From Nemertoderma westbladi (Eukaryota > Animalia > Xenacoelomorpha): a stretch of 33,762 nucleotides of DNA. The stretch is taken from NCBI GenBank assembly GCA_032718475.1, contig JAUCBJ010005269.1, positions 1 through 33,762 of the forward strand, in the 5' to 3' direction. The position numbers were made by a program, and so were the translations under genes. Positions 11,482 through 32,991 of this stretch are shown piece after piece. Numbering within the stretch: position 1 is the stretch's first letter; each line of letters opens with the position of its first letter. Below the pieces are notes generated by a model. It was not told the origin of the DNA. It worked only from the letters and a program-made list of their open reading frames with translations, and searched no databases.

Positions 11482-14400
11482 GTGACATCCACTTACAAGG
11501 CTCGCCCCATTGTTATCGCGTGTTTGATTCCCATGACATCCACTTACATGGCTCGCCCCATTGTTATCGCGTGTTTGATCCCCATGACATCCACTTACAT
11601 GGCTTGCCCCATTGTTATCGCGTGTTTAATCCTCATGACATCCACTTACATGGCTCGCCCCTTTGTTATCGCGTGTTTAATCCCCATGACATCCACTTAC
11701 ATGGCTCGCCCCATTGTTATCGCGTGTTTAATCCCCATGATATCCACTTACATGGCTCGCCCCATTGTTATCGCGTGTTTAATCCCCATGACATCCACTT
11801 ACATGGCTCGCCCCATTGTTATCGCGTGTTTAATCCCCATAACATCCACTTACATGGCTCGCCCCATTGTTATCGCGTGTTTAATACCCATGACATCCAC
11901 TTACATGGCTCGCCCCATTGTTATCGCGTGTTTAATCCCCATGACATCCACTTACATGGCTCGCCCCATTGTTATCGCGTGTTTAATCCCCATGATATCC
12001 ACTTACATGGCTCGCCCCATTGTTATCGCGTGTTTAATCCCCATGATATCCACTTACATGGATCGCCCCTTTGTTATCGCGTGTTTAATCCCAAGTGACG
12101 CTCCACTTACATTTCTTGCCCCATTGTTATCGCGTGTTTAATCCCCATAACATCCACTTACATGGCTCGCCCCATTGTTATCGCGTGTTTAATCCCCCTG
12201 ACATCCACTTACATGGCTCGCCCCATTGTTATCGCGTGTTTAATCCCCATGATATCCACTTACATGGATCGCCCCTTTGTTATCGCGTGTTTAATCCCAA
12301 GTGACGCTCCACTTACATTTCTTGCCCCATTGTTATCGCGTGTTTAATCCCCATGACATCCACTTACATGGCTCGCCCCAGTGTTATCGCGTGTTTAATC
12401 CCCATAACATCCACTTACATGGCTTGCCCCATTGTTATCGCGTGTTTAATCCCCATGACATCCACTTACATGGCTCGCCCCATTGTTATCGCGTGTTTAA
12501 TCCCCATGATATCCACTTACATGGATCCCCCTTTGTTATCGCGTGTTATGTCCCCATGACATCCACTTACATGGCTCGCCCCATTTTTATCGCGTGTTTA
12601 ATCCCTACGCTCCACTTACATGGCTCGCCCCATTGTTATCGCGTGTTTAATCCCTAGTGACGCTCCACTTACATGGTTCGCCCCTTATCGCGAGTTTAAT
12701 CCCTAGTGACGCTCCGCTTACATGGCTCGCCCCATTGTTATCGCGTGTTTAATCCCCATGACATACACTTACATGACTCGCCCCTTTGTTATCGCGTGTT
12801 TAATCCCCATGACATCCACTTACATGGCTTGCCCCTTTGTTATCGCGTGTTTAATCCCTAGTGACGCTCCACTTACATGGTTCGCCCCTTATCGCGAGTT
12901 TAATCCCTAGTGACGCTCCGCTTACATGGCTCGCCCCATTGTTATCGCGTGTTTAATCCCCATGACATACACTTACATGACTCGCCCCTTTGTTATCGCG
13001 TGTTTAATCCCCATGACATCCACTTACATGGCTCGCCCCATTGTTATCGCGTGTTTAATCCCCATGACATCCACTTACATGGCTCGCCCCTTTGTTATCG
13101 CGTGTTTAATCCCCATGACATCCACTTACATGGCTCGACCCATTGTTATCGCGTGTTTAATCCCCATGACATCCACTTACATGGCTCGACCCATTGTTAT
13201 CGCGTGTTTAATCCCCATGACATCCACTTACATGGCTCGCCCCTTTGTTATCGCGTGTTTAATCCCCATGACATCCACTTACATGGCTCGACCCATTGTT
13301 ATCGCGTGTTTAATCCCCATGACATCCACTTACATGGCTCGACCCATTGTTATCGCGTGTTTAATCCCCATGACATCCACTTACATGGCTCGCCCCTTTG
13401 TTATCGCGTGTTTAATCCCCATGACATCCACTTACATGGCGCGCCCCTTTGTTATCGCGTGTTTAATCCCCATGACATCCACTTACATGGCTCGCCCCTT
13501 TGTTATCGCGTGTTTAATCCATGACATCCACTTACATGGCTCGCCCCATTGTTATCGCGTGTTTAATCCCCATGACATCCACTTACATGGCTCGCCCCTT
13601 TGTTATCGCGTGTTTAATCCCCATGACATCCACTTACATGGCGCGCCCCTTTGTTATCGCGTGTTTAATCCCCATGACATCCACTTACATGGCTCGCCCC
13701 TTTGTTATCGCGTGTTTAATCCCCATGACATCCACTTACATGGCTCGCCCCATTGTTATCGCGTGTTTAATCCCCATGACATCCACTTACATGGCTTGCC
13801 CCTTTGTTATCGCGTGTTTAATCCCCATGACATACACTTACATGGCTCGCCCCTTTGTTATCGCGTGTTTAATCCATGACATCCACTTACATGGCTCGCC
13901 CCTTTGTTATCGCGTGTTTAATCCCCATGACATCCACTTACAGGGCTCGCCCCTTTGTTATCGCGTGTTTAATCCCCATGACATCCACTTACATGGCTCG
14001 CCCCATTGTTATCGCGTGTTTAATCCCCATGACATCCACTTACATGGCTCGCCCCAGTGTTATCGCGTGTTTAATCCCCATGACATCCACTTACATGGCT
14101 CGCCCCATTGTTATCGCGTGTTTAATCCCCATGACATCCACTTACATGGCTCGCCCCAGTGTTATCGCGTGTTTAATCCGCATGACATACACTTACATGG
14201 CTCGCCCCATTGTTATCGCGTGTTTAATCCCCATGATATCCACTTACATGGATCGCCCCTTTGTTATCGCGTGTTTAATCCCAAGTGACGCTCCACTTAC
14301 ATGGCTTGCCCCATTGTTATCGCGTGTTTAATCCCCATGACATCCACTTACATGGCTCGCCCCATTGTTATCGCGTGTTTAATCCCCATGACATACACTT

Positions 14401-14699
14401 ACATGGCTTGCCCCTTTGTTATCGCGTGTTTAATCCCCATGACATCCACTTACATGGCTCGCCCCATTGTTATCGCGTGTTTAATCCCCATGACATCCAC
14501 TTACATGGCTTGCCCCTTTGTTATCGCGTGTTTAATCCCCATGACATCCACTTACATGGCTAGATATCGCGTGTTTAATCCCCATGATATCCACTTACAT
14601 GGCTCGCCCCATTGTTATCGCGTGTTTAATCCCCATGACATCCACTTACATGGCTCGCCCCATTGTTATCGCATGTTTAATCCCCATGACATCCACTTA
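11482..14699. repeat. 51-bp satellite array, ~63 monomers
   Basis: Consensus ATGACATCCACTTACATGGCTCGCCCCATTGTTATCGCGTGTTTAATCCCC repeated head-to-tail with few variants. Confidence 0.97.
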
Positions 14700-15699: not shown

Positions 15700-16023
15700 G
15701 GCACTTCAGTCCAACTAGGTGGGGCACCTTATTCCAACTAGGTGGGGCACCTTATTCCAACTAGGTGGGGCACCTTATTCCAACTATGGTGGGGTACCTT
15801 ATTCCAACTAGGGTGGGGTACCTTATTCCAAATAGGGTGGGGTACCTCAGTCCATCTAGAATGGGGCAACTTAGTCTAACTAGGGTGGGGTACCTTATTC
15901 CAACTAGGGTGGGGCACCTTATTCCAAATAGGGTGGGGTACCTCAGTCCATCTAGAATGGGGCAACTTAGTCCAACTAGGGTGGGTCCCTTTAGTCCGAC
16001 TAGGGTGGGGTACCTCAGTCCAA
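15700..16023. repeat. 23/24-bp minisatellite (CCAACTAGGGTGGGGTACCTTATT) with a 96-bp four-monomer higher-order duplication
   Basis: Seen directly; the variant tccatctagaatggggcaacttag occurs twice, 96 bp apart. Confidence 0.9.
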
Positions 16024-16176
16024 AATCAGCGGGTTTATGGTGTATAGTGTAATGCAGTGAAAGTTTATAATCCCTGTCACTAAAGGACATTGTTGTTAGG
16101 AACGGCGCAGAGTTGAAGAGAGAGATATTGGGGAAGACAGGGCCTGTTCCATCGGGTCTTATCGAAGTGAGACGGC

Positions 16177-16940
16177 TGTTAGACACCTCCCATTAGTGTG
16201 CGATAAAGTGGACTGTATGGGGTGGGGAGTTGGGATGTTAGACACCTCCCATTAGTGTGCGATAAAGTGGACTGTATGGGGTGGGGAGTTGGGATGTTAG
16301 ACACCTCCCATTAGTGTGCGATAAAGTGGACTGTATGGGGTGGGGAGTTGGGATGTTAGACACCTCCCATTAGTGTGCGATAAAGTGGACTGTATGGGGT
16401 GGGGAGTTGGGATGTTAGACACCTCCCATTAGTGTGCGATAAAGTGGACTGTATGGGGTGGGGAGTTGGGATGTTAGACACCTCCCATTAGTGTGCGATA
16501 AAGTGGACTGTATGGGGTGGGGAGTTGGGATGTTAGACACCTCTCATTAGTGTGCGATAAAGTGGACTGTATGGGGTGGCCAGTTGGGATGTTAGACACC
16601 TCCCATTAGTGTGCGATAAAGTGGACTGTATGGGGTGGGGAGTTGGGATGTTAGACACCTCCCATTAGTGTGCGATAAAGTGGACTGTATGGGGTGGGGA
16701 GTTGGGATGTTAGACACCTCCCATTAGTGTGCGATAAAGTGGACTGTATGGGGTGGGGAGTTGGGATGTTAGACACCTCCCATTAGTGTGCGATAAAGTG
16801 GACTGTATGGGGTGGGGAGTTGGGATGTTAGACACCTCCCATTAGTCTGCGATAAAGTGGACTGTATGGGGTGGGGAGTTGGGATGTTAGACACCTCCCA
16901 TTAGTGTGCGATAAAGTGGACTGTAAGGGGTGGGGAGTTG
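16177..16940. repeat. 59-bp tandem array, ~13 near-identical copies
   Basis: Unit TGTTAGACACCTCCCATTAGTGTGCGATAAAGTGGACTGTATGGGGTGGGGAGTTGGGA; the last copy is cut by the LTR insertion. Confidence 0.97.
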
Positions 16941-18212
16941 TGTACGCGCTTTTGGAAGACCTTTAGCAGTTTAACCTGCCAAAATTTATATGTCTTTTGG
17001 TTTATAAATCGACTCTAGAAGATGACAATATTTAATACCAATAAACACAACATTAGCAGAAGCCAGCCTAGTGCGCCTCCATTCACCCGCTGGATAATCC
17101 CGGGAGACTGGATTCTGTCGGCTTAGATTATTATTGCAGTGAAGCTTACGGTATTGTATTATTCGATTGATCATTAATAATTAATTTCTGACTAATATTA
17201 TTCACTTTCGGGAAATATTAACAGTTCCTTTTAGGACGTGGCGCTCTATCTAAGTAAACAGAGATATGACTTATACTAATCACAACGGTAAGTCGGTAAG
17301 GCTTATGATTCACGTATGAGGCGCATTCTTTAGGAAATGCTTAGTTATCAGTCACAATCATGCACACTACCGGTAACACACAATACTGCTCACTAATTTG
17401 CCGACCGTCAATGAATTTTTATCATATATAAAGAGAATAGCAACGGACTCATGTAGGGCTTATCAAATAGCATTAAATTCAATACACACCACAATAATAT
17501 AAGTCGCAATCTCTATATATATAACCCGCCTCTCTAACCTGTAGTGTATCAAGAAAATTGGGAAATTTGGGTTCTTTATAAATGTTCTCCAAATAATATT
17601 CAATCCACTGATATAAGATATGACAACAGTAAAAACATTAAGACGGTAGGTTAAGATATGATATGAACAGATATGTACAGCGATATGCACTGATATGGAC
17701 CGATATGTGAGTTGTTATGAACCGATAACAGTCATACGCTCTATAATCTTAAGCCTACTAATGTTTCTTTCTAGAGCCGTTGTTTCTGGCTTAGACAGCA
17801 ATAACAACAAAGTATCAGTAAAAAACTGTAAGACTGAACAATCCCAGTATGATCGGCTCAAAGCTCCACATCGACAGAGAGAATCGCTCTGATTGGCTGA
17901 AGCCAAACAAAGAACCATGCGTCCAATGGCTGTTTCCATTTAAGCAACCAGCTGCTAGATGTCGTAATCTGAATCATCACGGCTAAGCTGTGTAAAAGTA
18001 TTTGCCGTATTGCGGGTTTTTTGCCTTACCATGTCCGCTAAAACACGTATATAGCAGAATGACTTTTATGTCCGTTAAAACACCTGTAACGGTACCTTGC
18101 GGGCGAGGGGAATATATACAGTTAGAGAACCTTTTTTAGAGTATTCCAGCGCCTGGGGGGAAACTGGATTGCGAAGCAAAGGGGCCAGTTATATCCCACA
18201 GAAGCTTTTACA
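16941..18212 (-). repeat. 3' LTR
   Basis: Direct repeat of 27454-28725; six substitutions found by eye and no indels. Confidence 0.97.
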
Positions 18213-18220
18213 CCGCTCCC
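18213..18220 (-). other. Polypurine tract (GGGAGCGG) abutting the 3' LTR
   Basis: Minus strand reads ...TTCTGGGAGCGG|TGTAAAAGC. Confidence 0.65.
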
Positions 18221-18290
18221 AGAAAATGGGATTTGAGTCTATAAAATATACAAAATCACAGTTTCTAATATACGTAAATACTCTAAACAG

Positions 18291-19739
18291 TTAGTCTTTC
18301 TTGCGCGGACGGCGTTTACGCAGTTTTTTAAAGCTAGCCAGAGTCCTTTTCTCTTTGGGGCGAGCCACTTTACAAGGAGGGCTATAACTCCTGGGTGAAG
18401 GGTGCAATATGATTGCATTAGAGGGTGTAGGATTATGGTCGGTGTATCCGTCAGTCGAAGTACCGGGTTGATTGACATCAACGTCAGGTGAGAGGGGTCT
18501 AACGGCTTTGAGAGCTCGTTTCAAGACAGCCGCTCTTACGGGTCCTTTACGAGTGGTCTGAACGAGGGCCGTGGGTGGACCATAGGCAGTTAGAAACTTC
18601 CGGGGTTTAATGGTCCTTTCCAACTCGCGTTCGCGGGCTCGGTATTCGTAAGGCCGTCGATATACTTCCTGTAACTCGGGGTGTGAGTTAACAAACAAGT
18701 CTCCATAGTCCGGATCCTAACGGATATAATTGATTAAGTTATAGGAATGAAGGTCGCTAGGATTAACACTCCTGAGAAATTTTCGTACGAACTTGGTTGA
18801 AATACATTCTCCGACGCGCTTCAGTAGTTCGTAACTCGATATGCGTGATTTCTGTTCGACAGAAGCGAATAGATAAGGATGGAACACATAAATTCCTTCG
18901 TAAGCGTGTCCAGGATAATAACGATGGCGCGAATCACAATGTAAATCAGCGTTCGCTTCCCAAGCTCTGATGTAACGTAGTGTGATCATTTCATCTACGC
19001 TTTCCAAATCGTGATTAAAAGGGCAATCGAAACTGGCGTGTCCCTTTAGTTGACAATGGTGACATTGAGTCATAAATTGAGGGCAAACCGCAAAAACGTG
19101 CAAATTATTAAATCTGCAATACACGCAATAAATTTCCATCGCCGGTTGTTCGTGGAAATAGGAACAACGGACGTTTGTGTCCATGGGCGTAACATGGTCT
19201 CTCGATACGCATAACCGACAACGTTGCCGAGAAACATAGTTGGCATGGCGATAATTATACGCAGTGAGACACTGTGGACCTTGATACCATTCTAGGATAT
19301 AATCGTTGTCGCTGTTCCGGGCGCGATAGGCTGAATCTCCTCAGATTCTAGGCATATTGGTTCGTCTTCCCAGTCTGTTACGAATAGAATTTTCGTGACC
19401 TATTCTCGGTTTATCGTTACGACTCCGCTGGGTATGATATTTAAATAGAACCATTTCCCTTTCGGTGTCTACATCGTCCGTGTCATGTAAATCGATAGGA
19501 TGGCTGGTAGTTAGGAAGTCCATATACGCACTATTACGATGCGTATAGCGAGCGGTGGATTTTCGATAGTCCAATTCACGCGCAAGTTGCTCTTGGGACA
19601 TCGGCGGTTCGATATAACGACCATCGTCCTCCGTAATGGTTGGATCGGCTTCACCGCGTATTAAGCTATCCACAAATGCTTGCAAAGGTAGAGTATATCG
19701 CTCCTTGATACCAAGATCATCTTCTATCAACTCCGTCAT
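18291..19739 (-). pseudogene. Accessory ORF of the LTR element: ~482 codons, three CCHC-type zinc motifs, basic C-terminus, two in-frame stops
   Basis: Listed ORFs 19341-19739, 18717-19184 and 18291-18698 share one frame, and the gaps are open (GDSAYRARN...CRLCVSRDHVTP; DPDYGD); only TGA 19341-19343 and TAG 18717-18719 interrupt it. Confidence 0.75.
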
Positions 19740-20494
19740 ATCTGCTATCTGAGTTTGTTAATATCGAAATGAGTTTATGTTTAGGCGAGCGGACGTCGCT
19801 GCCTACCTCTCTTTGCCCCCGGACAGTGGGATCCTCAGCGCTGATGTACCGTTGTCGCGGTGTTTACGCCAACATGTAGCAACAGTACGACAACGATAAC
19901 CGGCACAAGTCACTCCACTGTCCGTCCCAAAGGCTTGAATCCACTTTAGGTTCTTTCTGTAGGAGAGTTGGGTTACTTTCACAATTGCGACTAGCTACTG
20001 TAAACACACCTTAGCAGTAACATTCACCTACAAACGCACAAATTCCACACAACTGTCACCAATTGTACACATACAGGCCATTTGTCCGTTAGTCAGTGCC
20101 TTCCAGAATGTCACGTTATTACTGTGTATCCTTGGATACTAACAGTGTGCTATGTATTCTCTATGCTATGCAATGGGACAAGCTTTCTATTGTTCTTTTA
20201 ACTTGCTTCTAATTCTAGCGTGGGTGTTGCTATGGTGACATTATGGAATGCTAGCGGTAGAATTAGGGCAATTCTCATGCATACAGATCTGGGATGCTAT
20301 TTAATAATAATTCTTTAATTGTCAATATCCTCTTTATGCATGATTTTATTAATTTTATCGGCTATTGACTATATGTTGGAGATTCTCGCACTCTAATACA
20401 CTCAATAGGATGAATCTCCGCTCCCATGATCTATTAATTAATGGAATTTTGGGAATGTTATAAATTGTACAAAATGACAATTTATGAAATTCAT

Positions 20495-23400
20495 TTAAAA
20501 TATGAATTTAAATTTATTCCCGTGAATTTTATTATTTGATGTTAAAATTACTATGTAGCTTTTGTTAAGACCGTGAACTCTTACTTGAACTACAGGAAAT
20601 TCTCTGATTCCTACGTTGGAAGCTGGAGCTTTCCAAGATGGTTGTTTTGCGAAAGTAGTTGGGGGAAACTCATCGTTGATGTCCTTTTCGTAAGTAAGTG
20701 CTCGATACACTGCGGTATTGATTAGATAACAGGATTCGTTGGCGTCGGAGAATTCGTCAGTATAGAATCCTTCCATCTCAGATTCTTGATCAGTGTCATT
20801 TACATCACTGAATTGGACATGTAGTTCGGGCTCACTTACCTGACTCGGGTTGTTTCGTTCGAACTCACTGTGTAACAAGATGTGATGTTTCGCGCCACAC
20901 TTTGCACACTTTACGTCGGAGTAACAGGTTCGCCGTTGGTGTCCTGATCTGAGGCAATTATAGCATAACCGCTTATTCCACAGGACTGTACGTCTGTCTA
21001 CAAGGGATTTCTTTAGAAATTCAGCACACGCACTCAAACAGTGGGGCCCGTCGCACAGCGCACATTTTGGTTTGATGTTACTCACCTTAACTTGGTTAAC
21101 GTTCTGCACTCTCGTTCTTTCTTCGGGCTTTCTTCCGTGAATTCTCTTAGGAGACGTAGGAGGAGTTGTTGTTACCTGCTCTCTCCTGTCACTGGTTCGA
21201 GACTTGTATTTACTTACGTCTTTATAGGTCTTGTTGTCATAGTAAGATTTTGCTGTGTCCTTCCCGCTGTCCCCCTCTTGAGAAGCTTGGCTTTCGCCGT
21301 CGTCAGTATAACACACTGGTATTATCCTTCTCCTAGAAACGGGTTTCTCACTTACCTTATTTTCCGATGTTTTCTCTCTGGACTGCCTTATGAGTTGTAA
21401 TTTTACTTCACTATCTAGGAAAGACATGAGATCAGCCATGGTAGGACTTCGTCGTTGTTGTTCATTCATGTACAACACTTTCTTGTCCCAGCGTGTACAT
21501 ACTCCACCCTTTGGTAAAGTAGAGACTACGGCTCCAATAACCATGGAACTCTGATATTCATGCGACTTACCTAACCAGTCCAGTTGTCTACAGATCTCTT
21601 GAATTTCATCGGAAAACTCTATAATCCCGCTACTAAGGAAGTGTCGGGGGGCTACTAATTTTGCATACAAATACTTAGCTATGTTATCCTTGTTACCATA
21701 CCTGATGTTTAATGTATCCCAAACTTGTCTTAATCCATCTGGATGTCCAATAAACTTTAACGCCATTAACTTGGGAGGTCCTTCCAAGCACTTGATGAGG
21801 AATCTAAGTTTCTCTCCGTTAGATAGTACGGAGTTCTGTATGCTATCTTTGTAATATTCGTTGAAAGGTAACCATTTCATCTCATCTCCATTGAATTTGA
21901 CGATCTCTCCCACTTTGACCGCTTGGCGGGCTTCTGTTCTAGCCATCTGACGCGTAAAGCTTTCTTGGGCCATCGTGTTATTTAATATCGAATTATCGGT
22001 ATATGAATTTCTCGGATCATTATCAGGTCTATAGGGAATATCATTAATAACAGGTCTATAATCACCCTTAATAGGGTTTGCTATAGGAGTTTCTACTTCA
22101 CTAGCAGTATAGATGCGTGTAGGCTCCACACCTTGCGCATGTAGTACTTCAGACCTAACAGGTTGACACAATGTTACAGGGGGTATTGGTATGCCCTTTT
22201 GGATATTGACTAATTTGTCGCGTTCTAGTGCGATACTTTGCTGCACTTCTCGCAACTCTGCTCTATCTTCCCTCACTGTTCCCTTAAGTTGGTGGACAGT
22301 CTCCTGCATCTGTCCTAGCAGGAGATTCATCCCCCGCCGTCCCTCCTCTACCCACTCAACCGCCGAAGCGGGAGTCGCCAACATTGTAGCGGGCTGACGC
22401 GGGACGACGGGAGACAAATCTTTGATTCCTCTCTCAATGCTCAGGACGGGGATATTCGCATGGACTGTTCCACCGGGTACAGGCAGTGTAGTACTGTGTA
22501 AAGGGAATTTAGAGTTAAGCTCTGGAAGTGCAGGGGTCTCTAGCACAGAAGTGACTTGGGGAACGACAGGCCTAATTATTTCAGGCTCATCAACTATTGT
22601 AGGTAGTCTTTTGACCTAAATGGTTTGGTCTGTAGGTTCTGTACTACCTAAGTCTGTGCTAGCTAGTTGTCTTCTGACAGCTGGGGGCAAATCAGGCAAT
22701 TTGTGACGGTAAGATGTTTTTCTACGCCTGCTTAGACGAGATCTATTTCCTCCGCCTTCAGGATCGGTGGTTTCGCTTTCCTCCGATGAAGTATAGCCCT
22801 GGCGTTTGGGAGTAGATTTTCTCATCATCTGCATGTGACTAGCAGTTAACTGTTTATTTATGTTGTCTTGCGTCTCTTGCAGCTTCTCCAACTCCAGTTG
22901 GGTAGTCTGCTCAGACGCTCTTCGTTCTGCTTCTGCTACTGCCCTTTTCGCCCTTGCTTCTGCTTCTGCCATGGCCTCCTTTCTTTGTATTTCTGCTTCG
23001 GCTATTGCCGCTGCCTCCTTTCTTTCTGCTTCGGCTTCTGCGATTGCCGCCGCCCTTTGTTCCTCTATCCGTCTTTTCTTTACTTGTTCTTCTTGGACTC
23101 TAACGAGGCGGAGTTTTTCATCAAATTTAGCTTGGTTTGCAGCTAACATTTCCGCATCGATTGCGTCCAACACAAGCTTGGTTCCTTCACTATTAGGGCG
23201 AAGTCCAGACAGTCGTCTCCTCAACTCTTCGTCTCCTATGAATCGCTGATAGTCTGACAGATAGATGTCAATGGCGTCTCTAGTTCGCGGCTTCTCTGCT
23301 GATGTTAATTCGCTTTCCACTTCGCTTTCCACCTCGCTTTCCACTTGAGAAGAAGTGGCGCCGGTTGATTCTTCATAGGTTGGCCGCTCATCATAAACCG

Positions 23401-23758
23401 TATCCACCATCTTCGCTCCGTGTTCGGGTGTCCGCTCAGCAGTATCCGAACTACTGGAGCTATCGGGCCACTGAGAACTAGGTTCTAGGCTAGGATGTTG
23501 CTGCTGTTTGACAGCGGCTTCTTGATCCCGCTTGACTTGGGCCCGAGTACCGATGATAGACCTACGTTGTTCTACTAGCCTAGGGTCTGACACTACTACT
23601 GTAGGGATGGCCTTTTTTACAATAGTAGGTGACTTAGACTTGGATCTAGGATGTTCTATACTTGGATCTGGGTCACTGATCTTTTTAAGGCACTGTCTAA
23701 CAGTCATTCTAACACTTTCTAAGAGACTATCCGACAGTGATTGGGTTGTGTCTGACAT
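20495..23758 (-). pseudogene. gag: BEL/Pao gag (1087 codons with one in-frame TAG at 22616-22618) fused to a truncated protease start
   Basis: The 380-aa and 683-aa ORFs are in one frame and the linker VKRLPTIVDEPEIIRPVVPQVTS is open; DUF1759-like KFNGDEMKWLPF...EKLRFLIKCLEG...LNIRYGN; Pao triple knuckle CALCDGPHCLSAC / CYNCLRSGHQRRTC / CAKCGAKHHILLH; PVVQVRVHG resembles the protease start, but no D(S/T)G motif follows. Confidence 0.88.
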
Positions 23759-23919
23759 GTTTGTTTACACAGTTGAATGCCTACGGCTATAAATACAGTT
23801 AAAGCAAGTCTAGCAATTCAGTATCACTGTTAGCCTAGTAATTAATTACCGATACTGCTACTCAGTGTAGCGTGATATATATATAATATATTAGAATACC
23901 AGTATGCTTATAGTATATA

Positions 23920-25349
23920 CAGTGCTGCTCAAAAGTTTGGTCACACCTATATTTATAGATGGAAAATATGTTTTTCATCTATTGTGATCAGAAACCTTTA
24001 GCATGTACACTTTATTGTATATCATTTGAAAGCTTATTTAATTGCGGTTAATAATTCATACAAAAATGGTGGGAAATTCAAATTTGATAAAAATTCGTTT
24101 AGTTTTTGCTTCATTACCGGTACCAGGAATATATCGTGCTTTTACGCTGCCGACATGTTATTTAACAGAGCTTTGATACATGTAATTATTTTTTTGTAAT
24201 ATTTTGGAGACCCAATGGGGAAAGTATGTGAATTAACGCCTAAAAAACGGTCAGCCATTGTTGCTCTTCATGAGGCAGGCATAAAAACCCAAGAAATCGC
24301 TGAAAAATACAATACGACACGACGAACTGTTTTACGGACTGTTAAACGCTTCAAGGAAGAAGGCTCATATTCTTCTAAGAAACGTTCTGGGAGACCAAGA
24401 ATTACAACTCGCAAGGAGGATTTATCGATTAGAAACATTTGTGAAACTAAACCGTTTGCAACATCAAAGGAAATATCGACAATTCTGGAAGATCGCCGAC
24501 ATGTTCGAGTAAGTCCACAAACTGTACGACGGAGACTTTCTAAAGAGTTTAAGTTGCAAGCTCGAAAGGCAGCTCAAAAACCTCAACTATCTGAGAAGAA
24601 TCTGAGGGATAGGAAATTATTTTGCCAAAAATACAAAGATTGGACAGAGAACGATTGGGACAAGGTTCTCTTTTCCGATGAGTCACAGTTTTCACAGTTT
24701 GGTTCGACTGGTCGTTGGGTCCGACGCCCTATTGGCCAGCGGTATAATCCAAAGTATACCCTAAAGACTGTGAAGAATCCACCAAAGGTTATGGTTTGGT
24801 CGTGCTTCTCTGCAACAGGGCGGGGTAGATTGTGGTTTATGCCCAAGGGCACAACACTGAATGGACCCCGCTATAAAGAGGTCCTGGCCGAACGTCTTAT
24901 TCCAGCAATGGAGTCACTTGGAGCAACCACATTCCAGCAAGATGGTGCTCCTTGCCACACATCCAAGCTGGTCAAGGACTACCTCAACAACAACAATGTA
25001 AATGTAATGTTTTGGCCAGGCAATTCACCTGACTTAAACCCTATTGAGAACCTTTGGAGAATTTTAAAACTCAAAGTTTGGCGGCATAAAGCGAGTAATA
25101 TTGATTGCTTGAAGAAAGCGCTAGTTTCTGAATGGGTCAAACTACCACGTGAACTTTGCAAAAATCTTGCAAGTAGTATGCCAAGACGTATTAAATTGTG
25201 TATCGCGGCCAAATACTATAGCACTAAGTATTAATTGTGAATTTGCATTGATTTAAAATTAGGAATTATAGTTAACTATATTACTTTACATTACTAAAAT
25301 CTCAATTTCCTAAAAACACCTGGTGTGACCAAACTTTTGAGCAGCACTG
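23920..25349 (+). mobile_element. Full-length Tc1-family DNA transposon nested in the retrotransposon leader
   Basis: Perfect 28-bp TIR CAGTGCTGCTCAAAAGTTTGGTCACACC; TA on both sides; 1430 bp. Confidence 0.97.
24215..25234 (+). CDS. Tc1 transposase, DD34E, intact 339 aa
   Basis: Paired-like HTH, GRPR linker, FSDES, FQQDGAPCH and SPDLNPIENLW with 34 residues between D and E. Confidence 0.97.
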   Translation: MGKVCELTPKKRSAIVALHEAGIKTQEIAEKYNTTRRTVLRTVKRFKEEGSYSSKKRSGRPRITTRKEDLSIRNICETKPFATSKEISTILEDRRHVRVSPQTVRRRLSKEFKLQARKAAQKPQLSEKNLRDRKLFCQKYKDWTENDWDKVLFSDESQFSQFGSTGRWVRRPIGQRYNPKYTLKTVKNPPKVMVWSCFSATGRGRLWFMPKGTTLNGPRYKEVLAERLIPAMESLGATTFQQDGAPCHTSKLVKDYLNNNNVNVMFWPGNSPDLNPIENLWRILKLKVWRHKASNIDCLKKALVSEWVKLPRELCKNLASSMPRRIKLCIAAKYYSTKY

Positions 25350-26544
25350 TATATAAGTATTATTACAGACTAGATTTGTCACAGAGTACCGGTATATAAT
25401 TTTAGCGCAAATATATATAAATATATAATAGGCCTATCGTGAATACCAGTATGCAGCTTACACTTATAGTATATATAAGTATAATTATGAACTAGAATTA
25501 ATTACAGAATACCGGTATGATTTCAGCACAAATTTATAGAAATAAATATAATAAGCCTATGGTAAATACCGGTATGTCAATTATTTTAGAATAATTGAAT
25601 TTCTGAATATTTTAGGGTTACTTGGTTACTTTAACTTACTTTGTTACCGTTATTTAAGCAGTAGTCCAACTGATTTTGAGACCTAAGTGTTGTATAACAG
25701 GCTTACTATTTTATTAATAGATTTAGTGGATTTATATGTAGCCTACCCGTATGAGGGGTTTTGTTACAATATTGAAATAGATGTTACTATTTCTGGGAAG
25801 TAATCACTACACAAAAGCTGTACGCTCTCAGTGAAGTGCTACTTATTAGACACTAAAACAGATAATTCTACTGGCCTAAGTTACTTATCTACGAATTACG
25901 TACAATACGGGTGAGATTAAATCTCTAACTAAACACAACAAAAATATTACGTACGGAATTTTAGGGTAATTTTACAGGGAAACTATAAACCAGTCTAACA
26001 AAGGGTTAGAATTCTGGTTATTACAATGGACAGGGTACTACGGTATTTGAAAATAATAAGTAGTAGTAAATACACTGCGTTGTCCAGATAGGAAAATACC
26101 ACCGCCTGACGACCTATAACCGTATCGCTATAGGTACTACGTTATGTATCACGGATTGTTCCTACCTAGAAGTTAATTACCGCGGACTACCAGATCCAGC
26201 GTGCCTATTAACCACTTTACAACACAAATATACTGCCTACACACTAATTACTTCGGAAAGCACTGTACACTAAACCCTAAATTAGGTACAAGTACTGGTA
26301 TAACAAATAATCAGCAGTTAAATATACTTGAACAGTTAAAAGAACCACGGCATCTGCTGGAGTGACCGAAGCACAAAGTCACTAGTCTTTACCTACGCCA
26401 AGCAGCCCGTGTAGTACCGGGGTTAATTTAACTATAACGGTATGTGTAACAAACACAATTACTGTAGGAATAAACTTGGGGACATGAATGTTGCGAATAA
26501 TCGCATAAACTCTGAATAATAAATATTACGCTACCCGTACAGAA

Positions 26545-27090
26545 TACTCAAACAAATACAAACCAAAACGCTGGCAGACTACCACCAAGCCTAAATAAAC
26601 TACCGTACGTGTAGATTCTGAAATAGTTAGTTAGTATGCGTTCTAACACGGTAGTACGACTTATTCTTTAAGAGGGGATTGACCTTACCGCTATGGCTGC
26701 CCCAACTTACTAACGGAGCTTTATCAGACAAACTCTACACACGCAGCAATCTCTTCAGACCTAATAATAGCTAGACAACAATCCAGCCTACAAAATATCT
26801 GAGTAATAACTATTACGGTACCTGAACAGACCACACAAACAAACACAGGCCAAAACGCTGGCAGACTACGATCAAGCCTAAATAAACTACAGTATATGCA
26901 GATTCTGAAATAGTTAGTTAGTATGCGTTCTAACACGGTAGTACGACTTATTCTTTAAGAGGGGATTGACCTTGCAGCATATGGCTGCCCCAACTTACTA
27001 ACGGCACTCTATCAGACAAACTCTACACACGCCGTAATCTCTCCAAACTCAACAACAATCCGACAACAGTCTGGCCTACAATTATCTGAA
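26545..27090. repeat. ~287-bp-period tandem duplication in the retrotransposon 5' leader
   Basis: caaaacgctggcagactac...gattctgaaatagttagttagtatgcgttctaacacggtag...atcagacaaactctacacacgc occurs at 26564 and 26851. Confidence 0.85.
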
Positions 27091-27261
27091 CAATCTGAGC
27101 AGACTTACACGTCTTCAGCTCAATATTAACTTACTAGGAAATAAAACTGACAGAAATAAGTAAACTATACAAAAGAATGAGGGGTGATCAATCCCTATTC
27201 CTCTGGTAGCCTACAATATACTATAGATCACAATCGAAATAATACTAATGTACTTATACTG

Positions 27262-27388
27262 GAAGTACCGGTTAGGACAGTTGGGCCTACAGACCTACAG
27301 AAGTACCGGTTCTGGCAGTTGGACCTACGGACCTACAGCAGTACCGGTTCTGGCAGTTGGGCCTACTGACCTACAGAAGTACCGGTTC
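27262..27388. repeat. 38-bp tandem repeat (~3.3 copies) just downstream of the PBS position
   Basis: GAAGTACCGGTTCTGGCAGTTGGGCCTACAGACCTACA-type units start at 27262, 27300, 27338 and 27376. Confidence 0.85.
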
Positions 27389-27442
27389 AGGTTTACCGGT
27401 CGACCGGTACTTTCAACTTTATTGCTTACTGCAATAAAGTCA

Positions 27443-27453
27443 ATGACTGTTAT
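27443..27453 (-). other. Putative self-priming primer binding site (ATAACAGTCAT)
   Basis: Directly follows the 5' LTR; lacks TGG; complementary to element-sense ATGACTGTTAT at 28238-28248 (17725-17735 in the other LTR). Confidence 0.6.
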
Positions 27454-28725
27454 TGTACGCGCTTTTGGAAGACCTTTAGCAGTTTAACCTGCCAAAATTT
27501 ATATGTCTTTTGGTTTATAAATCGACTCTAGAAGATGACAATATTTAATACCAATAAACACAACATTAGCAGAAGCCAGCCTAGTGCGCGTCCATTCACC
27601 CGCTGGATAATCCCGGGAGACTGGATTCTGTCGGCTTAGATTATTATTGCAGTGAAGCTTACGGTATTGTATTATTCGATTGATCATTAATAATTAATTT
27701 CTGACTAATATTATTCACTTTCGGGAAATATTAACAGTTCCTTTTAGGACGTGGCGCTCTATCTAAGTAAACAGAGATATGACTTATACTAATCACAACG
27801 GTAAGTTGGTAAGGCTTATGATTCACGTATGAGGCGCATTCTTTAGGAAATGCTTAGTTATCAGCCACAATCATGCACACTACCGGTAACACACAATACT
27901 GCTCACTAATTTGCCGACCGTCAATGAATTTTTATCATATATAAAGAGAATAGCAACGGACTCATGTAGGGCTTATCAAATAGCATTAAATTCAATACAC
28001 ACCACAATAATATAAGTCGCAATCTCTATATATATAACCCACCTCTCTAACCTGTAGTGTATCAAGAAAATTGGGAAATTTGGGTTCTTTATAAATGTTC
28101 TCCAAATAATATTCAATCCACTGATATAAGATATGACAACAGTAAAAACATTAAGACGGTAGGTTAAGATATGATATGAACAGATATGTACAGCGATATG
28201 CACTGATATGGACCGATATGTGAGTTGTTATGAACCGATAACAGTCATACGCTCTATAATCTTAAGCCTACTAATGTTTCTTTCTAGAGCCGTTGTTTCT
28301 AGCTTAGACAGCAATAACAACAAAGTATCAGTAAAAAACTGTAAGACTGAATAATCCCAGTATGATCGGCTCAAAGCTCCACATCGACAGAGAGAATCGC
28401 TCTGATTGGCTGAAGCCAAACAAAGAACCATGCGTCCAATGGCTGTTTCCATTTAAGCAACCAGCTGCTAGATGTCGTAATCTGAATCATCACGGCTAAG
28501 CTGTGTAAAAGTATTTGCCGTATTGCGGGTTTTTTGCCTTACCATGTCCGCTAAAACACGTATATAGCAGAATGACTTTTATGTCCGTTAAAACACCTGT
28601 AACGGTACCTTGCGGGCGAGGGGAATATATACAGTTAGAGAACCTTTTTTAGAGTATTCCAGCGCCTGGGGGGAAACTGGATTGCGAAGCAAAGGGGCCA
28701 GTTATATCCCACAGAAGCTTTTACA
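27454..28725 (-). repeat. 5' LTR
   Basis: Direct repeat of 16941-18212; lies upstream of gag on the minus strand. Confidence 0.97.
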
Positions 28726-28934
28726 AGTTGAGAAGTTAATAACAAAGTTTTAAATCGATGAGAACTGCCAGAACTACTGTATATATTATATCATTATAAT
28801 CAGTTAGAAGATAAAAGATATTACAATTGCAGAAATAGTATATATTTACAGTAAAAAATGACGCTAAAAAAATAAAAAAATTTACTGTTGTATAGGTCAG
28901 GGGCTTCCGCAAGCAGAGGGTGAAGATGCGAGAA

Positions 28935-31227: not shown

Positions 31228-32138
31228 AAATAACAACAGTTTCAACTACTCTCCCATCTCCAAACTTCGGGTCGATTCCCCCAACATATAAAATTGATAT
31301 TTTTAAAAAACTACCAACGTTTCATTGCCACTAGGGCCATCATCAGGGTACTACTTATAACGCACGACATAATACAATAGTAGAAACTATAACTATAAAT
31401 TATAATTTAATTCATATATTCACTATAGTAAGCACAGTACAAAAGTGTACGCCTACCTACGGTACAGTAAGCAGCCTAAATCATGCCGGGTAATGCAATA
31501 TTAATCTCCAATTAATACCCAGTTGTTTGCGAGGTATGCAGAATGTACAGTACAGTCAGGGATATAATACGAGCTGATGTCCCAGCTGTAGGCTAGTAAT
31601 AGCTGGCATCTCTTTGGACTAACCGGCCCCCAAAATAATAAACGTATTGCATACAGTACAAATAAACATAGTGAAATTACTACATTGTGAAAATTTTTCT
31701 AGAATTAATCCACTATCACACATTTTAAACATAAAACATCAAAATTAATACAATGATATAGATTTCTAAATTTAAGTATCACGTTGAATATTGTAAATAC
31801 TAAACATATAAATGCGCAAAATTATAAAACATATTACAAAAAAAAGAAGAAAACCAAAAAAAAGAAACCGTAAAGGTGATATCAAGGCTAACAAATAAGT
31901 AACTTCGATCTTACCCCCCCCCCCCCCCCCCCCCCCCCCCCTTACGTTCAATAATCCCATTCATTTTCTAAGTAGTGGGTCTGATTCCATTCAAGGTCGG
32001 TTTGAAATCAGCAATATAGTTAGCTTCCGCGTGGATCCTGCAAACTACGTTGGTAGTTTTTTAAAAATATCAATTTTATATGTTGGGGGAATCGACCCGA
32101 AGTTGGAGATGGGAGAGTAGTTGAAACTGTTGATATTT
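31228..32138. repeat. ~90-bp near-perfect inverted repeat pair (31228-31320 / 32047-32138) in the FReD intron; possibly Penelope pseudo-LTR derived
   Basis: caacagtttcaactactctcccatctccaa...aaaaactaccaacgt and its reverse complement; a hammerhead-like motif abuts the left arm. Confidence 0.75.
31312..31350 (-). ncRNA. Candidate minimal (Penelope-type) hammerhead ribozyme, degenerate
   Basis: Minus strand TACC-CTGATGA-TGGCCCTAGTGGCAAT-GAAACGTT-GGTA: core boxes, 4-bp stem I TACC/GGTA, palindromic AACGTT in place of stem III; stem II imperfect. Confidence 0.45.
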
Positions 32139-32233
32139 TCCCATCGCAGTCACACAAATTCGTAAGACAGTACAGTAGTTACCCGGTTCTTAAATATATT
32201 TTAGATATTCTCTGTTTGTATAATTTTTTTAAG

Positions 32234-32991
32234 AATTAGATACAGAGTGGAAAGAACTGATACACACCGCAGTAATACATACAATCAATACTAAATACCA
32301 GCGCGTCAATATCAATCTATCAATGGAACATATAACAAAACAAGTTGAGGCTGAGTTGAAAGAACAGGTTACAGAGTTAGTGCATTCATCCATGACACTC
32401 TATCAGCTATTGGCTCCTCGGTTAATAAAGCATAAAGATGGGCTGAAGATTCAACAAAGAGTTGATGGATCTGTCGACTTCTATCGCAACTGGGATGAAT
32501 ATGTTGAAGGATTTGGCGACCCGAATACCAATTTTTGGTTGGGATTGGAGACGATCCACAAGCTGAGTGAAGGTGGGGTGAAGTTGAGAGTCGATTTGTG
32601 GTTCACTGGAGAGGGATATAAAGGTGGAGATGGTGTTAATAGATGGGAGAGGGTGAATTACAACAACGAACACAAATACGCGGAATACAAATACTTCTCT
32701 ATCGATTCAGCTGCAACTAATTATCGCCTACATGTATCTGGTTACCATGGTACTGCTGGTAACGCATTTAACAATCACAACGGTTTCCCATTCACCACCA
32801 AGGACCGCGATAATGACGGGAGGGACTCCGGCAACTGCGCCGTAGATCGTACTGGGTCGTGGTGGTACAACAGCTGCGCAAACAGTAACTTGAACGGAGA
32901 ATATGGTGCGGGGGATTGGAAAGGACCTCATTGGTGGTATTTTACTAGAGTGAATCCGGCTTCTCGAGTTGAAATGATGATTTCGATTTAG
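32234..32991 (+). CDS. Fibrinogen-related domain (FReD; ficolin/angiopoietin/tenascin-like) protein, terminal exon
   Basis: IQQRVDGSVDFYRNWDEYVEGFGD, FWLGLETIHKL, YRLHVSGYHGTAG, FTTKDRDND, NCA...WWYNSCANSNLNG; the three-exon model gives 327 aa; the 5' boundary is less certain than the domain call. Confidence 0.9.

Follow-up and report, generated by a model that had tools for sequence, protein, structure and literature searches.

An LTR-complementary primer-binding site in a gag-only BEL/Pao-derived element of Nemertoderma westbladi

A young LTR element in the genome of Nemertoderma westbladi carries, at the position of its primer-binding site (PBS), an 11-nt motif that is the exact complement of a segment of its own LTR. 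From this match, and from comparison with BEL/Pao loci recovered from metagenomes, we propose that the element probably primes minus-strand DNA with its own RNA rather than with a host tRNA.

The element and its primer site

The element occupies positions 28725-16941 of the minus strand (11.8 kb) in the window, by which we mean the whole 33,762-nt stretch of DNA analysed here (contig JAUCBJ010005269.1). It is a young, gag-only, BEL/Pao-derived LTR element (Table 1). An in-frame stop at 22618-22616 interrupts its gag frame, the second part of which encodes a DUF1759 domain (PF03564; E 2.5e-12, better than the curated cut-off), and this bears out the BEL/Pao origin given in the preliminary description; those best relatives of the window Gag that bear pol also carry Peptidase_A17, the Pao peptidase family. 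A tblastn search of the window with three BEL polyproteins found no pol (the gag region alone matched), and no close protein relative or autonomous partner was found, the best identities being mostly 24-38%. The extra frame at the 3’ side has a weak, sub-threshold resemblance to zinc knuckles (Pfam, E 0.009; Atlas, 0.86). With only 6 mismatches in 1272 LTR positions and an intact target-site duplication, the element is recent and thus transposed with its present PBS or nearly so.

According to the ICTV description of Belpaoviridae, members have an 18-nt PBS for tRNA-Arg or tRNA-Gly and are primed by host tRNA, with LTRs of 0.2-1.2 kb (PMC8742986). The window element shares with the family the type of Gag, TG..CA LTRs, a 5-bp target-site duplication and a purine tract, and its LTR of 1272 nt lies at the upper edge of the range; it differs in lacking the 18-nt tRNA-Arg or tRNA-Gly PBS and in that no pol was found in the window. 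Since there is no 18-nt tRNA PBS, we file the element by its Gag as BEL/Pao-derived and non-autonomous, not as a typical member of the family.

Several other features adjoin or interrupt the element. The Tc1/mariner transposon nested in its leader has an open DDE_3 transposase frame (24200-25234, 343 aa), and the leader also holds two 287-bp repeats (26511-27094) and 3.3 copies of a 38-bp repeat (27262-27388). Adjoining tandem arrays lie at 11483-14699 (51-bp unit, 63 copies), 15710-16024 (24-bp, 13 copies) and 16177-16940 (59-bp, 13 copies), the element being inserted at the edge of the last. On the other side are a MITE-like element of ~910 bp with long terminal inverted repeats (58 + 36 bp) at 31228-32138 and a frame with a fibrinogen C-terminal domain, 32233-32991 (+), a host gene exon (PF00147, E 4e-38).

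Table 1 Features of the element and their coordinates in the window
Feature	Coordinates	Strand	Remarks
Target-site duplication CAACT, upstream copy	28726..28730	-	
5’ LTR, 1272 nt, TGTA...TACA	27454..28725	-	
Near-copy of PBS, 10/11, in upstream LTR part (U3)	28572..28582	-	
Consensus-like splice donor GTAAGG	28537..28542	-	LTR position 184; within the donor range of splice-type loci
Two CCAAT boxes (28440, 28409)	28405..28440	-	Opposite orientation, 31 bp apart; candidate TATA-less promoter (putative role)
Inr-like TCAGTC	28345..28350	-	~100 nt upstream of LTR 11-mer; putative role
Second, weaker PBS partner	28312..28321	-	8 Watson-Crick + 2 G-U pairs; overlaps terminal CA
LTR 11-mer, candidate primer 3’ end	28238..28248	-	Exact complement of PBS
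TATAWAWR matches (28036, 28034)	28027..28036	-	Downstream of LTR 11-mer
ATTAAA, sole AWTAAA poly(A)-type hexamer in LTR	27544..27549	-	95 nt before LTR end
PBS position, 11 nt, ATAACAGTCAT	27443..27453	-	No TGG; begins at first base past LTR
13-bp hairpin directly behind PBS	27413..27443	-	z -3.2; 0/200 shuffles for 27460-27405
Tc1/mariner transposon within leader	23914..25355	+	Perfect 34-bp terminal inverted repeats
gag frame	20495..23764	-	Coiled-coil N-part, DUF1759, three zinc knuckles; stops soon after knuckles
Extra 3’ reading frame	18291..19757	-	Cysteine/histidine clusters; two in-frame stops
Purine-rich tract before 3’ LTR (PPT position)	18213..18222	-	
3’ LTR, 1272 nt, TGTA...TACA	16941..18212	-	6 mismatches to 5’ LTR, 99.5% identical
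Target-site duplication CAACT, downstream copy	16936..16940	-	Edge of 59-bp tandem array

The two central observations of the preliminary description, an exact 11-nt complement at offset 0 and the absence of a PBS for a tRNA 3’ end, hold up on re-examination: pairing ends at 11 nt, and TGG is missing from the first 55 bases of the leader. The 3’ LTR has its copy of the LTR 11-mer at 17735-17725, and 784 nt separate the candidate primer end from the LTR end. This PBS is picked out by a published in-silico rule for self-primers, namely at least 10 bp within 0-5 bp of the LTR (available part of PMC6317226).

Among 20,000 dinucleotide-shuffled LTRs, 10 gave 11 nt at offset 0 (5e-4) and 39 gave 11 nt at offsets 0-5 (2e-3); when the LTR end was left free, the window match was weaker and was equalled in 2 of 30 shuffles. 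The self-complementary PBS is real and exceeds what simple chance would give, with the reservation that this feature was the reason for choosing the window. It is unlikely, in our estimate, that the match is nevertheless accidental or a side effect, with the 11-mer a protein-binding or structural motif repeated in both orientations, or the site a decayed PBS in a non-autonomous family that moves by some other route. Such a reading gains from the choice of this window among very many and from the finding that, of 31,176 positions on the minus strand beyond the LTRs, 24 (the PBS and 23 others) are matched by a complementary 11-mer inside the LTR. Two copies matching at 10/11, one in U3 (of the PBS) and one inside gag (of the LTR 11-mer; 23707-23697, minus strand), make the 11-mer less unique, and one-mismatch copies of the motif number four independent ones against 1.1 expected for all matches. 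An accident would, however, have had to begin exactly at the first base past the LTR, the young element offers no alternative site for a primer, and eight of ten BEL/Pao loci without TGG are self-complementary at the same position (see below). As a separate matter, where an RNA begins further upstream, or at the 3’ LTR, the near-copy in U3 could sequester the 11-mer.

Very unlikely, too, is priming by a host RNA of the kind used by copia and Ty5, either half of a tRNA or a piece from its interior. The motif resembles the anticodon loop of tRNA-Asn(GUU) in its seven 3’ letters, but tRNA-Asn almost invariably has A at position 38, where the window motif would have U. A fragment of this kind would leave the exact copy in the LTR unexplained, and that copy is no tRNA gene (ARAGORN found 0 genes and Rfam no tRNA match) and has no anticodon stem. 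In its favour, half-tRNA and internal-tRNA PBSs are reported for Ty1/copia in the available parts of PMC6317226 and PMC5445492.

Other copies of the family were seen in assembled contigs from four public runs, which gave 10,625, 2,620, 80 and 147 records on the LTR and the leader that follows it. Contigs from all four runs cover the leader, and one diverged contig spans the LTR end (27393-27495). Since other copies, too, continue from the LTR into this leader, it is a family trait and not a deletion of the window copy; judging from the contig records listed, an autonomous partner may still have a different PBS. No variant falls inside either 11-mer among those listed (40 of 215 substitutions, 12 of 92 indels and 24 of 438 loose ends). 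Among the contig joints listed, three pick up again at 28237 and one at 27442, in each case a single base beyond a motif, and two more pass over the 11-mer region and may have other letters there; joints near the 11-mers are weak hints in both directions. A loose end at 27453 leads into a start that is not TGG and may be flank. Five or six CATATC units stand directly behind the LTR 11-mer (28170-28225, minus strand), a stretch that contigs of other copies substitute before rejoining at 28237. Run X4, which we guess to be RNA, has no cover at 28212-28270 and is uninformative on expression. Family DNA was absent from the metagenome contigs and viral contigs searched, and BEL profiles confirmed nothing in viral contigs or prokaryote genomes.

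Promoter signals and RNA folding

The preliminary description placed the RNA start at 28248, and promoter motifs do not back this position. Its own reservations proved sound: TCAGTC is found at 28350, there is no TATA 30 nt upstream of the 11-mer, and R and U5 together, counted from where the 11-mer begins up to the end of the LTR, would span 795 nt. By a rule of thumb for the distance from such elements to the start, the CCAAT boxes and the Inr-like site point to a start lying 60-100 nt before the 11-mer. The promoter clues disagree, since against these upstream signals every TATAWAWR match on the element strand of the LTR, including a further one at 27943-27936, lies downstream of the 11-mer and none upstream.

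Were the downstream matches the promoter, with a start near 28005, the 11-mer would belong to U3 and be present only at the 3’ end of the RNA, where it might circularise the RNA for strand transfer or prime from the 3’ end of a partner RNA. The arrangement of TATAWAWR (28036, 28034 and 27943, with none upstream) and the shorter R and U5 would agree with this, and pairing between the 5’ and 3’ parts of the RNA is known for Ty1. We nevertheless think it highly improbable: the length of the TA run differs among copies in the contigs, TATAWAWR is common in the whole window (51 found vs 36 expected), the two CCAAT boxes and the Inr-like site are upstream of the 11-mer, and the primer itself would be left unexplained.

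In local folds the PBS is predicted to be unpaired, with a predicted 4-bp pairing between the LTR end and the leader. Folds of the R-U5-leader region, which at 850-1050 nt are rough, gave the core of the 11-mer/PBS duplex a probability of ~1 for 5’ ends at 28262, 28255, 28250, 28248 and 28246; the duplex is thus favoured in 5 of 10 5’ starts tried, that is, where the RNA starts no more than 14 nt upstream of the 11-mer. The probability is 0-0.11 for 5’ ends at 28275, 28290, 28305, 28325 and 28350, and 0 for 28450. For starts at 28325-28350 the PBS is predicted to pair with the second LTR site instead of the 11-mer. The fold of 28250-27405 beats 20 of 20 shuffles.

Predicted splice-built primers in other BEL/Pao loci

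A BEL profile scan yielded 79 metagenome loci (from the best 80 of 554 confirmed stretches, in 10 of 64 parts of the collection); 21 loci had LTR and leader sufficient for a fixed junction test, and 57 of the 79 were left out. The rule called for an LTR end CA, an offset of 0-3, a GTRAG donor, a YAG acceptor and an intron of 50-900 nt. In eight of the ten loci without TGG, hereafter splice-type loci, the PBS is complementary over 10-15 nt to a GTRAG..YAG junction of the locus’s own LTR (15 nt in L001, 13 in L002, 12 in L042 and L061, 11 in L004, L036 and L049, 10 in L026). For each of the eight this length was reached by 0 of 100 shuffles, a lenient null since shuffling destroys real splice sites, and 0 of 10 TGG controls reached 10 nt under the fixed rule. 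The match is at offset 0 in seven of the eight. Every one of the eight primers has AC or AT as its last letters, and 101-155 nt separate the primer end from the LTR end. The predicted LTR introns measure 76-426 nt and begin with GTAAGT, GTGAGT or GTAAGC, at LTR position 127-345 where the LTR start is fixed. The letters differ on both sides from element to element, which amounts to covariation across families. Splice-built self-primers are therefore predicted for these BEL/Pao loci.

The LTR end is fixed by an LTR pair in L001 alone among the eight, and no LTR pair was found in eleven further loci checked. Several locus regions were trimmed after the matches were known; an untrimmed run gave the same match in 6 of 8. 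Two loci, L020 and L047, fail the fixed rule yet fit by eye (33-nt intron; no CA at the LTR end), and L045 likewise fits a junction by eye under looser rules. The junction search can give doubtful matches when the LTR end is free, as we conclude from L014, which has a TGG-like site and yet a junction match of 10 nt (0 of 30 shuffles) and, elsewhere, one of 14 nt.

Kinship was judged from integrase identities only. Identities to L001 are 44-55% for splice-type and 34-50% for TGG loci, and those to L049 are 45-63% and 31-44%, so that the splice-type loci appear to group loosely, two TGG loci being as close as some of them.

A few of these loci deserve mention in their own right. L001 (55-73 and 6341-6759) is, like the other seven splice-type loci and, judged by eye, L020, L045 and L047, an intact-looking metagenome element in which the PBS matches a predicted exon-exon joint of its own LTR, and L020 (1-13230) has two near-identical BEL/Pao units in tandem with one shared LTR and ~1.5 kb between the pol end and the LTR. 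L069 (59-70) and L077 (144-155) are BEL/Pao loci whose PBS, TGGTAGCAGAGC, is of the tRNA-Met type, not the Arg/Gly type of the ICTV; the same TGGTAGCAGAGC site is given for metazoan GalEa copia elements in the available part of PMC5445492. ARAGORN found one tRNA-Arg and no tRNA-Asn in 20 loci.

The window element shares several traits with the splice-type loci: there is no TGG, the PBS is self-complementary (11 nt in the window, 10-15 nt in the loci) and stands at offset 0, and the primer ends in AT. The complement is contiguous in the window, however, whereas in the splice-type loci it exists only across the predicted LTR intron, and the loop is 784 nt as against 101-155 nt. A contiguous self-primer was found in none of 11 non-TGG metagenome loci. 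The window Gag scores no better against a splice-type profile (seven sequences, E 6e-23) than against a TGG-type profile (seven sequences, E 5e-26), and Gag therefore does not support descent from the splice-type lineage.

Could the window primer be splice-built as well? With the GT inside the 11-mer as donor, an acceptor followed by GTTA (at 28051 or 27488) would restore 10/11 at offset 1 and give a shorter loop. A relaxed search does return 10 nt at offset 1 for acceptor 28051, the acceptor at 27488 (TTTTGGCAG) was spotted by eye, and a splice-built primer is predicted for most of the non-TGG loci. Even so, we give this reading scant probability, for its donor, CT/GTTATC, is far from consensus in comparison with GTAAGT, GTGAGT or GTAAGC in the eight loci, the first PBS base fits the unspliced form only, and, with so many AG sites to choose from, chance alone should provide one that is followed by the 4 matching nt. 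Window junctions with a GTRAG donor match the PBS over 6-7 nt at best, no better than shuffles, and none of the junctions from the GTAAGG donor matches it in the window copy.

We favour the unspliced 11-mer. The window element would then carry, free of an intron, the type of BEL/Pao self-primer that is elsewhere predicted at an LTR splice junction, and intron loss, in which a spliced 3’ LTR is copied into DNA, would be a natural route to a contiguous primer. The proposal of self-priming made in the preliminary description has thus fared unevenly: self-priming as such gains support from the eight of ten non-TGG loci, and the exact Tf1-style start at 28248 does not. That the 11-mer forms the first 11 nt of the RNA is doubtful, because the promoter motifs point upstream and because the self-primers of the other BEL/Pao loci are predicted to arise at splice junctions; such a junction has a first exon in front of it and so cannot supply the opening 11 nt of a transcript. 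An internal 11-mer, terminating a longer capped fragment, is the more likely primer.

Known self-primers and a possible mechanism

Tf1 is the only element for which self-priming is proven; for its Ty3/gypsy relatives and for a single lineage of plant copia elements it is a prediction. For Cer7 of C. elegans it has reportedly been proposed that the element encodes its own tRNA-like primer. The available parts of PMC7175516, PMC5341516 and PMC4600332 describe self-priming in Tf1, Tf2, Tj1 and Tcn1 and place the RNase H cut of Tf1 between bases 11 and 12. As far as these sources go, Tf1 and Tf2 (S. pombe), Tj1 (S. japonicus) and the Tf1/sushi and Tcn1 chromoviruses resemble the window element in having no tRNA PBS and an 11-nt PBS at the LTR edge that is complementary to an LTR 11-mer. 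They differ in their proteins, which in Tf1/sushi are those of Ty3/gypsy chromoviruses whereas the window has a DUF1759 BEL/Pao Gag, and in that Tf1 uses the first 11 nt of its mRNA whereas the window 11-mer is probably internal, with its 784-nt loop, and is known from sequence alone. We considered membership of the window element in Tf1/sushi and rejected it, its Gag being DUF1759.

For the plant Ty1/copia TAR lineage (Houba, Osr-1), self-priming is predicted from sequence, by the same rule as that applied to the window but in another superfamily and kingdom (available part of PMC6317226). Fungal GalEa elements, with their Conserved Hairpin Site, and biv-TRIM likewise lack a tRNA PBS and carry a hairpin immediately after the 5’ LTR (PMC5445492 and PMC6934838, in the parts available). 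The hairpin position is common to the window element, in which the hairpin follows an 11-mer with an LTR complement; for GalEa no LTR complement was found, according to the available part of PMC5445492. In the open literature searched (outside subscription journals, Repbase Reports and the original descriptions of Suzu, Saci-1 and Cer), we found neither self-priming nor splice-built primers for BEL/Pao. A word search of the available parts of PMC554778, PMC2774666, PMC3118150 and PMC13524379 gave no statement of self-priming, and neither ‘PBS’ nor ‘tRNA’ occurs in PMC3118150 and PMC554778.

Position and precedent make up the case for probable self-priming in the window copy. The steps that we envisage are as follows. 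Transcription would begin no further downstream than 28248, and most probably 60-100 nt upstream of it, and the LTR 11-mer would pair in vivo with the PBS, which is predicted to be open beside the hairpin. RNase H of a helper element’s reverse transcriptase would then cut just 3’ of the 11-mer, by analogy with Tf1. The freed 3’ end of the primer would abut the LTR edge, and copying would proceed through U5 and R back to the cut.

More tentatively, and with less than even confidence, we suggest that a broad BEL/Pao branch has dropped tRNA priming and mostly uses LTR primers built by the spliceosome, and that the high-copy family of the window has lost the intron, fixed the exon joint and self-primes unspliced from a capped primer of ~100 nt. 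If this is true, both states of a switch would be at hand, priming gated by splicing on the one side and constitutive priming on the other. The predicted splice-junction primers would tie reverse transcription to RNA processing, and the contiguous form in the window would be the simplest substrate for testing self-priming. Self-priming of these BEL/Pao elements, if true, would explain why annotation pipelines miss PBS calls for many animal members of the superfamily, and it may make them independent of the host’s tRNA supply and let them escape silencing by tRNA fragments. Should the window element indeed prime itself, the mechanism would reach a third superfamily of LTR elements.
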